Shown: piece by piece, positions 3,140 to 42,071 of the stretch | How positions within the stretch are numbered: position 1 is the first letter of the stretch | Layout: each line of letters starts with the position of its first letter | IMG/VR virus record: IMGVR_UViG_3300011113_000123 | Span: 93,581-157,580 of that record | DNA: 64,000 nt | Source of the DNA: a virus | Reading direction: 5' to 3' (one strand) | The notes under the pieces: model-generated | The model's input: only the letters and a program-made list of their open reading frames with translations | What the model was told of the DNA's origin: nothing | Database searches by the model: none | Position numbers and translations under genes: made by a program

Positions 3140-3864
3140 TGGAACCTATTCGTATTTTCGTAGGCACCTCCTCTAACAACGAGGACGCCGAAGCTGAAAT
3201 GGTTCTGGAGTATACGCTCCGTAAGAACACCACAGTCCCTCTTGATATTACGTGGATGCGTCAGACCCACGACGAGAACAGCATCTGGGGTGGCTGGGAA
3301 ACTCGTCGTTGGTCGACTCCGTTCAGCGGATTCCGTTGGGCTATCCCTGAAGCATGTGATTTCACGGGACGAGCTATCTACATGGACGTAGATCAGCTGA
3401 ACCTGCGCGATATCTCAGATCTATTCTGTATTGACCTTGAGGGTCGTCCGATGGCTGCGCGTCGTGGTGCTCGCTTTGGTGGGCACGAGTTTTGTGTTAT
3501 CCTTATGGACTGCGAGAAGCTCGGTGACATGCTACAGCCAGCTGCACGAATGAAACGTAATGCAGACGCGCACCATCGTTATATCGGTATGTTCTCAGGA
3601 AGCGACTACGTTCTTGATCTAGATCCGCGTTGGAACTGTCATGATGGAGATGGTCGTGAGATTGCTGATATCTGGCATCTACATTATACCGACATGGCTA
3701 CGCAACCATGGAAGCCAGCCTGGTATACGGGCGTTCCATGCGAGCATCCGCGTCAGGACCTAGTTAAGTTGTGGCATGATACGCGAGCAGAAGCTGCTCT
3801 GAATGGTTGGGCTCCGCATCTCAATAATGAAGTTTATGGTGATTACAGGATTATTGGTCGATGA
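3136..3864 (+). CDS. Glycosyltransferase (GT-A, GT8-like)
   Basis: STPFSGFRWAIP, YMDVD (DxD), WN, HYT...QPW motifs. Confidence 0.7.
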   Translation: MMEPIRIFVGTSSNNEDAEAEMVLEYTLRKNTTVPLDITWMRQTHDENSIWGGWETRRWSTPFSGFRWAIPEACDFTGRAIYMDVDQLNLRDISDLFCIDLEGRPMAARRGARFGGHEFCVILMDCEKLGDMLQPAARMKRNADAHHRYIGMFSGSDYVLDLDPRWNCHDGDGREIADIWHLHYTDMATQPWKPAWYTGVPCEHPRQDLVKLWHDTRAEAALNGWAPHLNNEVYGDYRIIGR

Positions 3865-10554: not shown

Positions 10555-10632
10555 CCTCTGTTAGTGTAGCGGTCAAACATACCCGCCTTTCAAGCGCGGA
10601 GATCATCGGTTCAAATCCGATACAGAGGACCA
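10555..10632 (+). tRNA. tRNA-Glu(TTC)
   Basis: CT-TTC-AA loop, CCTCTGT/ACAGAGG acceptor, CCA. Confidence 0.85.
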
Positions 10633-12088: not shown

Positions 12089-12163
12089 GGTGCTTGAGCA
12101 GGACGGTAATGCGCGGGACTGCAAATCCTTGAGAACCCAGTTCGACTCTGGGAAGCACCTCCA
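12089..12163 (+). tRNA. tRNA-Cys(GCA)
   Basis: CT-GCA-AA, U73, CCA. Confidence 0.9.
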
Positions 12164-38811: not shown

Positions 38812-39507
38812 ATGAAATTTGATCATGATCCCTACATTGACTTGCCTAGAGCCCGTCAAATCAATACTCCATCGGGGCGTCGCTATCAGACCCCCGATGG
38901 TAACGTATATCCTTCCATCACTACAGTCTTAGGTGATCAGCCCGAGAAGAAGAAAGCGATTGCCGAGTGGCGTGCTCGCGTTGGTGGAGCAGAAGCGAAC
39001 AAGATCAGCTCGCAGGCTGCTCGTCGTGGTACCGATCTTCATAACCTCATGGAAAAGTATATTCTAGGAGACGAGATTGATGCAAAGAAAATCATGCCCT
39101 CGACACTCGCACGTTTTCGTCCTGTTCAGAAATGTCTGGATGAAAATCTGCAACTTGTATATGCGTCTGAAACGCCGATGTTCTCAGACATCCTCCGCAT
39201 CGCAGGAACGGCAGACTTAATCTGTGAATGGAATGGCGAAGTAACAGTGGTTGACTTCAAGACAGCCACGAAGATGAAAACGCCAGAGATGATCACAGAC
39301 TACTTCATACAGGCTACAGCCTACTCAATCATGTTCGAAGAGCATACTGGCCTCGAGTGTCATCACTTTGCCATTCTCATGATATCTGACGAAGGCGAGT
39401 TCCAAGTATTCTCTGGCAAACGCAACGACTATGTTCGCCAACTGATTCGCGTAAGAGATCAGTATGAGTGGAGGAAAAGTCTTGACAACCGACGCCAGAC
39501 CGCGTAA
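38812..39507 (+). CDS. PD-(D/E)XK exonuclease
   Basis: YPSITTVL, RGTDLH, AGTAD, VDFKT, YFIQATAY. Confidence 0.9.
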   Translation: MKFDHDPYIDLPRARQINTPSGRRYQTPDGNVYPSITTVLGDQPEKKKAIAEWRARVGGAEANKISSQAARRGTDLHNLMEKYILGDEIDAKKIMPSTLARFRPVQKCLDENLQLVYASETPMFSDILRIAGTADLICEWNGEVTVVDFKTATKMKTPEMITDYFIQATAYSIMFEEHTGLECHHFAILMISDEGEFQVFSGKRNDYVRQLIRVRDQYEWRKSLDNRRQTA

Positions 39508-39510
39508 TAT
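39482..39510 (+). promoter_or_regulatory. sigma70-type promoter for tmRNA
   Basis: TTGACA-N17-TAATAT. Confidence 0.75.
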
Positions 39511-39517
39511 ATACTAA

Positions 39518-39585
39518 TGCTGAGGTCGTTGAGGCGTAAGAAATAAGCGGTTCGGACGCGGGGGCAGTACCCGCCGCCTCCACCA
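39518..39585 (+). ncRNA. ssrA: Permuted tmRNA, acceptor piece (T arm, 3' acceptor strand and CCA); 5' end approximate
   Basis: CGGAC-GCGGG-GGCAGTA-CCCGC-CGCCTCC-A-CCA. Confidence 0.9.
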
Positions 39586-39611
39586 TAAAGACTTCTCTAA
39601 CTATCCTATTT

Positions 39612-39619
39612 TATAAATA
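39612..39619 (+). promoter_or_regulatory. T4-type late promoter for the HNH gene
   Basis: TATAAATA about 20 nt before the ATG; AAGGAG RBS follows. Confidence 0.8.
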
Positions 39620-39638
39620 GGTTCGAAGGAGAAATAAA

Positions 39639-40073
39639 ATGAAACATTTACACCATATCATTCCTAAACATATGGGTGGGACTGATGAACCAGAAAATCT
39701 TATAGAACTGACTGTTGAAGAACATGCAGAAGTCCATAAGAAACTCTGGGAACAATATGGAAGATGGGAAGACAAATTAGCTTGGCAAGGTTTGGCTGGT
39801 TTGATTGGTAAAGAAGAACTAATCAAACAAATGCTAATTGAATCTGCTAAGAAAGGTAATGCTTCTAGACCTACAAATAAGGGAAAGAAGTATAACTGGA
39901 AAAAGTCTCCCAAACCAGTAGGAACTGGAGGAACTAGATGGTTTCATAATCCAGAAAATCCTACTGAAAAGAAATGTTTCAGAGCAGATCAGTCACCTCC
40001 TGATGGTTGGGTGAAAGGTCAAGGAAGAAAAGCAGTTAATCCTGGCTTAAACTTCCATAAGAAGTCTTTATGA
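39639..40073 (+). mobile_element. HNH homing endonuclease gene in the tmRNA intervening segment
   Basis: HLHHIIPKHMGGTDEPENLIELTVEEHAEVH; RWFHN...GWVKG C-terminal motif; visibly more AT-rich than flanks. Confidence 0.85.
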
Positions 40074-40074
40074 T

Positions 40075-40222
40075 GGGGGCGAAATTTTAGGATCGACGGG
40101 CGTAGTAAAGTTGCGAAGAGATCGAAAGCAAATCGTAAGTGCAGCGAATGACAATGCACCTCGTTTCGCTCTAGCAGCGTAACATGCGTTCGGGGAGTAC
40201 GTGGAAACAGAAACTCCCCACT
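40075..40222 (+). ncRNA. ssrA: Permuted tmRNA, coding piece; tag AANDNAPRFALAA (40141-40182); 3' end approximate
   Basis: GGGGGCG pairs with CGCCTCC including G3:U70; GGATCGAC; TAAGT-GCA resume context; tag ends LAA-stop. Confidence 0.9.
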
Positions 40223-41243: not shown

Positions 41244-42071
41244 ATGAGCTTCTATGAAAACTGTGGGAACGATAAGCCCCTAAGCATTATCGCTGGTCCT
41301 TGTGTATTCGAGTCCAAGGATCACGCAGTTGAAACTGCAACTGCGCTCAAAGAAATGTGTTACATTGTCGGAGAACAGTTCGACACACAAGTCAACTTCA
41401 TCTATAAGACCTCTTTCGATAAAGCGAATCGAAGCTCTGCGGATAGTTACAGAAGTGCAGGTTTCGACGAAGCGTTTTACGGAATGGAGGCCGTCCGTGC
41501 ACGGGGCATCGAAGTCCTCACGGACGTTCACGACGCGTGGCATTGCGAACAAGTGCAGGCTGATATCATTCAGATTCCTGCGTTCTTATGCCGCCAGACT
41601 GACCTTATCCGCGCAGCAGCAGAAAGTGGTAAGCCTGTTAACGTGAAGAAGGGTCAGTTCCTCTCGCCGCATGAGATGAAGAACGTAGCAGAGAAGCTGC
41701 GTAAGTTTGGCTGCACTCAGTACATGTTCACTGAGCGTGGCACGACGTTTGGCTACAACAACCTTGTCGTCGATATGCGCTCACTGGAAATCATGAAGCA
41801 ATACACCAACGCTGTCGTGATGGATTGCACTCACGCGGTTCAGCTTCCTGGTGGTAATGGCACAAGCTCAGGCGGGCAACGTCAGTTCGTTCCGCTTATG
41901 GCTCGCGCTGCTGTTGCTGTTGGCGTAGCTGCTTTGTTCATGGAAGTTCATAACGATCCAGACAACGCGCCAAGCGACGGTCCAAACATGATTCGTCTTG
42001 ACAACTTCGAGAAAATCCTATATGATTTAGTAGAGTTGGATTATATATCCAAGCGGAGCTTGAGGCGATGA
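41244..42071 (+). CDS. kdsA: KDO 8-phosphate synthase
   Basis: IAGPC, FDKANRSS, QIPAFLCRQTDL, KKGQF, ERGTTFGYNNLVVD, SDGPN. Confidence 0.95.
   Translation: MSFYENCGNDKPLSIIAGPCVFESKDHAVETATALKEMCYIVGEQFDTQVNFIYKTSFDKANRSSADSYRSAGFDEAFYGMEAVRARGIEVLTDVHDAWHCEQVQADIIQIPAFLCRQTDLIRAAAESGKPVNVKKGQFLSPHEMKNVAEKLRKFGCTQYMFTERGTTFGYNNLVVDMRSLEIMKQYTNAVVMDCTHAVQLPGGNGTSSGGQRQFVPLMARAAVAVGVAALFMEVHNDPDNAPSDGPNMIRLDNFEKILYDLVELDYISKRSLRR

Follow-up and report, generated by a model that had tools for sequence, protein, structure and literature searches.

How does a gene for a putative homing endonuclease come to lie between the two pieces of an RNA gene, and can that RNA gene still work around it? The question arises from a locus in a 64,000-nucleotide stretch of viral DNA, here called the window, which belongs to a contig of 157,580 nt. 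Its source is an uncultured, aquatic, T4-like phage (PhoH, an exonuclease, 27 tRNA calls and a gp32 about 58% identical to those of cyanomyophages), and DNA near-identical to the locus is present in freshwater and estuary metagenomes. Our results suggest that the gene probably encodes an active, site-specific HNH homing endonuclease of a tmRNA-targeting clade, which has settled in the intervening segment (IVS) of a working permuted tmRNA gene.

The permuted tmRNA gene and the segment between its pieces

In the window, the acceptor piece of ssrA lies 5' of the coding piece (Table 1). An earlier, sequence-only reading had ended the acceptor piece at 39585, started the coding piece at 40075, noted G3:U70 in the acceptor stem and placed a 144-aa HNH ORF in the 489-nt segment between the pieces. 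All of these coordinates hold. The Infernal-type search with Rfam models that this reading proposed gave a match to RF04321 (tmRNA_permuted) at 39524-40182, spanning the insert, of 50.4 bits against a gathering score of 47, while the alphaproteobacterial model RF01849 matched each half separately and weakly, below its gathering score. The acceptor stem forms 7/7 pairs from G40075 with G3:U70, and the IVS (39586-40074) consists of a 53-nt leader, the 435-nt ORF (39639-40073) and one base. ARAGORN, run on the window, missed the gene at 39519-40222, which suggests that phage tmRNA genes with a long IVS escape this program. The TTGACA of the candidate early promoter is conserved among syntenic relatives, and the majority of these have a late TAAATA box there as well.

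Table 1. Features of the permuted tmRNA locus and its insert (window coordinates)
Feature	Position	Strand	Basis or remark
Sigma70-type (early) promoter candidate for pre-tmRNA	39482-39510	+	TTGACA, 17 nt, TAATAT; 10/12 match; predicted
tmRNA acceptor piece	39519-39585	+	RF04321/RF01849 and sequence; 5' end approximate
P2 strand	within 39519-39585	+	
T-arm	39558-39574	+	loop GGCAGTA
Acceptor 3' strand	39575-39581	+	followed by A73 and CCA ending at 39585
IVS, 489 nt (mobile cassette)	39586-40074	+	cross-phage identity; empty syntenic relatives
Closing helix, 5' strand	39586-39596	+	minimum-energy fold; extended by C75/A76 at 39584-39585
Anti-Shine-Dalgarno strand	39593-39598	+	pairs with 39628-39633 in nascent precursor; ViennaRNA, predicted only
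Inverted repeat/hairpin around late promoter	39605-39621	+	fold; in most leaders of IVS HNH genes
T4-type late promoter TATAAATA	39612-39619	+	position; TAAATA conservation; predicted
Copy of the D-loop motif of nuclease-free alleles, AAATAGGTTCGA	39615-39626	+	candidate operator/target mimic; overlaps late promoter
RBS AAGGAG	39626-39631	+	sequence; 25/25 alleles have GGAG/GAGG 6-10 nt ahead of the start codon
HNH homing-endonuclease gene, 144 aa	39639-40073	+	PHROG, Pfam, model; stop 1 nt before mature G1
HNH motif H5, H6, N20, H29, H33	within 39639-40073	+	N-terminal in the 144-aa ORF
Closing helix, 3' strand (last codons of ORF)	40060-40070	+	fold; pairing across alleles
tmRNA coding piece	40075-40222	+	RF04321/RF01849 and sequence
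Acceptor 5' strand	40075-40081	+	7/7 pairs with 39575-39581, including G3:U70
Lengthened D-loop AAATTTTAGG	40082-40091	+	most nuclease-free alleles have AAATAGG; possible immunity change that accompanies the cassette
Tag frame AANDNAPRFALAA	40141-40182	+	open; hydrophobic end, AA-stop
Terminal hairpin of coding piece	40192-40222	+	

The 144-aa ORF matches the PHROG 655 homing endonucleases (E = 1e-14) and scores 21.1 bits against Pfam HNH, just below the cut-off of 21.4; its similarity to MobE of T4 (54% identity over 39 aa) is confined to the HNH motif. An AlphaFold model of modest quality (pLDDT 70, pTM 0.44) places the HNH module at the N-terminus, followed by helices, a flexible linker and, at the C-terminus, a small domain rich in beta structure. 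Foldseek returned only weak matches to HNH nucleases for this model, and the ESM Atlas gave no name for the C-terminal domain; a NUMOD3 cluster found there at 0.88 is no more than a lead. The HNH motif is intact in 31/31 and dN/dS relative to the window copy is 0.09-0.17, values that place the gene under purifying selection. Cluster members of the HNH protein (P0002, P0005) carry from their source the name 'ABC-type phosphate transport system substrate-binding protein', which is a misannotation. In eight loci (L007, L008, L217, L220, L250, L283, L287 and L293) the HNH frame extends 12-40 nt beyond G1 into the coding piece; hence, the full protein could there be obtained only from an uncut or a late transcript.

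A group I intron core in the spacer, which would have refuted the sequence-only reading, is absent, and no intron family appeared in an Rfam search at E values up to 1; a group I intron was rejected for this reason and because only 53 nt lie outside the ORF (435 of 489 nt). The form of tmRNA group I intron that is inserted in the T-loop was also rejected, as the T-loop of the window is intact and the insert follows the CCA. An rRNA-type intervening sequence removed by RNase III does not fit either, given that the insert lies between CCA and G1 and that its ORF is an HNH gene and not of the 23S_rRNA_IVP type.

The ends of the IVS are predicted to pair. A 13-bp helix had been described from the sequence, and it is present in the minimum-energy fold, but C75 and A76 of the CCA account for two of its pairs, which leaves 11 bp within the IVS. 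The covariation that was to be looked for in this helix was found: across 21 distinct end pairs, IVS ends are paired at 91%, whereas shuffling of the rows gives 64% (maximum 72%), and there are compensatory changes despite the fact that the 3' strand is usually also coding. We rejected the idea that the helix is a nuclease-specific adaptation because it is equally long in empty alleles, with a median of 10 bp in nuclease-bearing and in nuclease-free IVSs.

Other features of these genomes were observed alongside the locus. ARAGORN called a tRNA-SeC(tca) at window positions 10555-10632; its loop is CTTTCAA, no other Glu tRNA was called, and it is more likely to be a tRNA-Glu(UUC) with an irregular anticodon stem. 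A tRNA at 12089-12160 was detected by Rfam and missed by ARAGORN. The gene at 41244-42071 belongs to the DAHP synthase I family (Pfam E = 3e-62), and L367 also has such a gene; the window gene is, by sequence, probably KdsA-like and a possible auxiliary metabolic gene. Mesorhizobium phage Cp1R7A-A1 (MT188704) has a permuted tmRNA gene with a 93-nt IVS (L200:2001-2042) that is unannotated in its record.

Empty alleles, carriers and lateral movement

Short-spacer alleles without the HNH gene, a check suggested by the sequence-only reading, were found in all 18 syntenic relatives (loci located via the upstream exonuclease, 70-93% identity): each has the same permuted tmRNA gene at the corresponding position, and its IVS is 65-100 nt long and without a nuclease. 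An unbiased scan with the T-arm sequence detected a nuclease in about 1 of 112 alleles. The cassette is optional and rare at ssrA. In the pair L367 (nuclease) and L281 (empty), flanks are 94-100% identical, and the main differences are the IVS and a 3-nt insertion of T's in the D-loop.

A search by homologues, pattern and identity look-ups yielded 31 distinct ssrA alleles with an IVS nuclease (30 HNH and one LAGLIDADG; 32 rows). The acceptor stem is 7/7 with G3:U70 in 32/32 rows, with many different stem sequences whose changes are compensatory, the tag was detected in 31/32, and, of 9 carriers scanned, 7, the window among them, have an RF04321 match across the insert that exceeds the gathering score. 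Because the stem is conserved with compensatory changes, the tmRNA does not look inactivated by the insertion, an outcome that would also have counted against the sequence-only reading; this judgement rests on sequence conservation only.

Several observations demonstrate recent lateral spread of the cassette, discordant at the sequence level with the history of host genes. The cassette is 97.3-99.8% identical in seven backgrounds (the window, L362, L365, L367, L372, L376 and L384), in a star-like pattern with only 1-13 differences, whereas the tmRNA flanks are mostly 53-79% identical and the neighbouring genes differ. One identical HNH protein occurs in two unrelated gene contexts, and contigs from two other studies match the cassette and short flanks only (39560-40101 and 39578-40101, 98-99%) and then diverge. 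Sequence common to carriers ends at CCA on the left and just beyond the D-loop on the right. Mosaicism was rejected as sole proof of homing, since nuclease-free IVSs are also exchanged: in a control, 5 of 9 nuclease-free IVS pairs with at least 97% identity had both flanks below 80%. Lateral movement therefore needs no nuclease in cis. Between L376 and L365 the downstream flank is 100% the same and the acceptor piece is different, which indicates a crossover in or beside the cassette; the cassette may be a shared recombination island.

The closest relatives of the nuclease are found in the same position. The eight closest viral homologues are all IVS-resident, with the CCA of a permuted tmRNA on one side and G1 on the other, and so are the nine closest metagenome homologues, one of them on a contig that is truncated just upstream. 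In a tree built from 106 HNH domains, 3 changes are enough to account for IVS residence, as against 24 in shuffles, and the window HNH falls in a supported set of 16, all IVS-resident; the number of HNH invasions is not resolvable from this tree (FastTree, 78 columns). No record in a cultured-phage collection had the nuclease-in-IVS arrangement. A single, exact-word-dependent scan of 185,579 prokaryote genomes produced nine HNH relatives, and none of the best five of the nine, which were checked, was in a tmRNA IVS. Free-standing HNH relatives occur near permuted tmRNA genes in L020, L291 and L347 (divergent from ssrA) and in L346 and L355; it is possible that these are forerunners of the IVS form. 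The IVS of L020 is only 9 nt long. In L303, L354, L048 and L302 a fragment with a partial T-arm, similar to a tmRNA acceptor piece, stands ahead of the HNH gene, and in L303 and L354 a complete tmRNA gene lies 3' of the HNH gene; these may be insertions in which the gene was rebuilt downstream.

The IVS also holds other genes. L227 carries a LAGLIDADG gene in its IVS (3205-3715; Pfam LAGLIDADG_1 24.2 bits, cut-off 23.1), and this single-motif family (L227, L520, L521 and L522) is IVS-resident, with a late promoter, in 4/4 loci (three distinct). At least two unrelated nuclease families have thus found the slot. Two of the LAGLIDADG leaders have a GGACAC direct repeat resembling the sequence just before the T-arm, possibly this nuclease's own target mimic. 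Nuclease-free IVSs of 120-270 nt are occupied by small ORFs under purifying selection: the IVS is 260-267 nt in L093, L136, L156 and L159, 177 nt in L087, L179, L188 and L195, and 149 nt in L110, L129, L141 and L173, with L114 and L132 likewise having a small ORF. These ORFs have an RBS and encode membrane-type proteins of 76-78 aa and 44 aa and others of 41-62 aa; dN/dS is 0.05-0.08 for the 77-aa membrane protein and 0.08-0.09 for the 44-aa protein. Such patterns suggest that the 'discarded' IVS is a general, exchangeable and mobile slot for small genes in aquatic phages.

Predicted regulation and a candidate target

A late promoter and an RBS had been assigned to the ORF from its sequence. 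Both are present, and TAAATA occurs in the leader of 17 of 18 alleles collected without the promoter pattern, but the frequency of TATAAATA itself, with two occurrences in the window, is at chance level. The promoter call is hence supported by the position of TAAATA in these leaders and not by the rarity of the motif. A search of sequencing runs listed no RNA dataset with the sequence, an outcome that weighs neither way. Folding with ViennaRNA predicts that the RBS of the window is unpaired with a probability of 0.02 in the nascent precursor, 0.46 in the full precursor and 0.66 in the late transcript. Medians over 25 alleles are 0.19 (nascent) and 0.67 (late), and occlusion is only partial in several alleles. 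As the anti-Shine-Dalgarno strand overlaps the closing helix, the RBS hairpin and the closing helix are predicted to compete. With its RBS half open (0.46), the full precursor or released IVS might itself be translated. In the case of I-TevI, late translation protects removal of the host intron (PMC2988022). By analogy, this logic of delayed translation fits the IVS nuclease because the last codons of the ORF form the closing helix.

The leader also points to a target. The Rfam alpha model aligns 39615-39626 to its own D-loop, and the D-loop motif is present within one mismatch in 18 of 25 nuclease leaders as compared with 1 of 97 nuclease-free IVSs; in the window a weaker inverted copy precedes it. 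The promoters of L020, L291 and L347, which are transcribed away from the adjacent ssrA, contain the motif as an inverted repeat, inverted repeats of it surround the promoters of L346 and L355, and it is rare at HNH genes away from ssrA. A loose pattern scan gave mostly chance matches. The motif is also in the Rfam alphaproteobacterial consensus. In I-TevI, a mimic of the homing site over the late promoter acts as an operator (PMC2988022). The leading candidate for the HNH target, as judged from these sequences, is the tmRNA D-loop just downstream of the IVS. Given this predicted target and a naturally occurring allele pair, one with the cassette and one without, the mechanism is open to direct test.

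Lengthening of the D-loop is common to 8/8 close carriers. Among alleles with the same acceptor type, a long D-loop is present in 6/6 distinct carriers and in 6/103 nuclease-free alleles (Fisher p = 5e-7, alleles not independent); carrier counts in general are not phylogenetically independent. Co-inheritance of the D-loop with the IVS is in part linkage, as only 7 nt separate them. The canonical D-loop is retained in carriers L222 and L289. The exact TTTT D-loop was found in six IMG/VR contigs (four alleles), all nuclease-free, and was rejected as a carrier-exclusive feature; these empty alleles could be resistant or secondarily emptied, which has not been shown.

Interpretation and comparison with known systems

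We propose the following sequence of events. From what is known of two-piece maturation, host enzymes of tRNA processing would cleave the early transcript 3' of the CCA and at G40075; its two pieces would remain paired and the IVS would be freed without ligation, so that a passenger costs little. A hairpin in the nascent precursor (predicted fold, conserved layout) would hide the nuclease RBS and keep ribosomes off the closing helix, and the late-promoter transcript, from which the blocking strand is missing, would then allow expression. The protein is inferred to bind the conserved D-loop motif and nick the nuclease-free ssrA of co-infecting phages, and repair to copy the IVS and about 20 nt of the coding piece, lengthened D-loop included, thereby biasing inheritance; the lengthened D-loop may protect the donor. 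By analogy with I-TevI, the D-loop copy over the nuclease's own promoter would be an operator. The sequence-only reading had called the site an intron-like safe haven. The spacer is indeed disposable and has no ribozyme core, but 'intron-like' is too strong: the IVS is disposable by nature, and it lacks the protection against loss that an intron has.

It is also possible that the nuclease is passive or beneficial cargo, one item among many in a slot that ordinary recombination swaps by way of the short, conserved tmRNA sequences on either side, and that it persists for a purpose other than homing at ssrA, for example to cut the DNA of competitors or of the host. Nuclease-free IVSs are, after all, also near-identical within divergent flanks, small IVS ORFs are also under purifying selection, and the common downstream but not upstream flank of L376 and L365 indicates crossovers inside the cassette. 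We regard this explanation as unlikely, since it leaves unexplained the D-loop copy at the promoters of the nuclease, in the IVS and in free-standing ssrA-linked relatives, the star-like spread over seven backgrounds and the presence of two unrelated homing-endonuclease families in one slot. A homing endonuclease that cuts other than at the D-loop, be it elsewhere in ssrA or in a neighbouring gene, in the intronless manner of T4 Seg and Mob enzymes, or by nicking both alleles, seems more doubtful still; the D-loop copy would then be an insertion relic or an arm of an RNA hairpin. Free-standing T4 enzymes can cut hundreds of bases away (PMC2988022), some carriers have a canonical D-loop and the mimic does double as one hairpin arm. 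However, neighbouring genes vary among carriers, which leaves ssrA as the only shared target, and the carrier-shared sequence has its ends at the CCA and just past the D-loop.

The least probable explanation, which we consider very hard to sustain, is that the insertion disables or degrades the tmRNA, with a long translated IVS blocking processing and the flanks a decaying remnant. The divergent carrier L293 (642-nt IVS) does have a poor T-stem, and the ORF enters the coding piece in several alleles, by 12-40 nt. Against this stand the perfect acceptor stems of every carrier row, with their compensatory changes, the almost invariable tag, the covarying closing helix and the RF04321 scores of most carriers scanned. 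A homing endonuclease resident in a working tmRNA gene remains our preferred reading. A broader picture, in which we have only even confidence, is of a guild of tmRNA-targeting homing endonucleases (HNH and LAGLIDADG) in aquatic T4-like phages, for which the IVS would be a third niche besides introns and inteins, without splicing or ligation. The HNH clade would recognise the D-loop, repress itself through the promoter copy and select for lengthened D-loops, while ssrA cutting would drive exchange of IVS cargo, small non-nuclease genes included.

Homing endonucleases have been described in introns, in inteins and in intergenic DNA. The IVS would be a new site for a homing gene, inside a single essential-type RNA gene and tolerated only because that gene is circularly permuted. 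Archaeal bulge-helix-bulge introns with LAGLIDADG genes, such as that of I-DmoI, are likewise removed by host tRNA-processing enzymes without a ribozyme; unlike the phage IVS, their exons are ligated (spliced), and they are archaeal and cellular. Bacterial 23S rRNA IVSs, for example in Coxiella burnetii, are also stem-closed, ORF-bearing and horizontally acquired inserts in a stable RNA that a host RNase removes without ligation, but RNase III cuts inside the mature RNA and the ORF encodes a 23S_rRNA_IVP/S23 protein and not a nuclease (PMC4990558, PMC11270868). Known permuted two-piece tmRNAs (RF04321, RF01849; PMC11915505), including that of phage Melnitz (PMC9004378), have the same gene order, acceptor stem, T-loop, tag and stem-closed IVS; the window differs in the length of its IVS, 489 nt, and in the nuclease gene there. 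In the 2025 database paper on tmRNA, the only homing endonucleases reported for tmRNA are those of group I introns in the T-loop, and a single tRNA-Ala gene and a single repeat are given as IVS cargo (PMC11915505). The Melnitz paper documents that aquatic phages have two-piece tmRNA; where it speaks of endonucleases, the IVS is not concerned (PMC9004378). In the searchable literature, subscription papers excluded, we found no account of a nuclease within a tmRNA IVS.

The closest parallels are in T4 and its relatives. MobE of T4, an HNH nickase, also has an N-terminal HNH module (54% identity over the 39 aa of the motif) and a distinct C-terminal domain and lies in neither an intron nor an intein; outside the HNH motif the IVS protein has no similarity to it (PMC2988022, PMC2790892). 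T4 segB, like the IVS nuclease, is located in a spacer, that of a tRNA cluster, and both segB and the mobE of Aeh1 have a late promoter with an RBS-hiding hairpin (PMC2988022). In contrast to these free-standing enzymes, the IVS nuclease sits between RNA halves that must pair across the insert, its last codons form the closing helix and the site that it is predicted to target lies no more than about 20 nt from the insertion. The enzyme encoded in the td group I intron of T4, I-TevI, has in common with it a late promoter, an RBS-sequestering hairpin and a target-like sequence over the promoter (PMC2988022), together with an ORF whose 3' end overlaps a structure needed for removal of the insert. 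The IVS cassette differs in having no ribozyme and no ligation, in encoding an HNH and not a GIY-YIG enzyme, and in that loss of the insert is harmless, so that nothing protects it from deletion. The layout of promoter, hairpin and operator matches that of both T4 I-TevI and Aeh1 mobE (PMC2988022). The arrangement thus looks apparently undescribed although its ingredients are known, and it appears to work not as an intron but as a free-standing Mob-type homing endonuclease with intron-type regulation.
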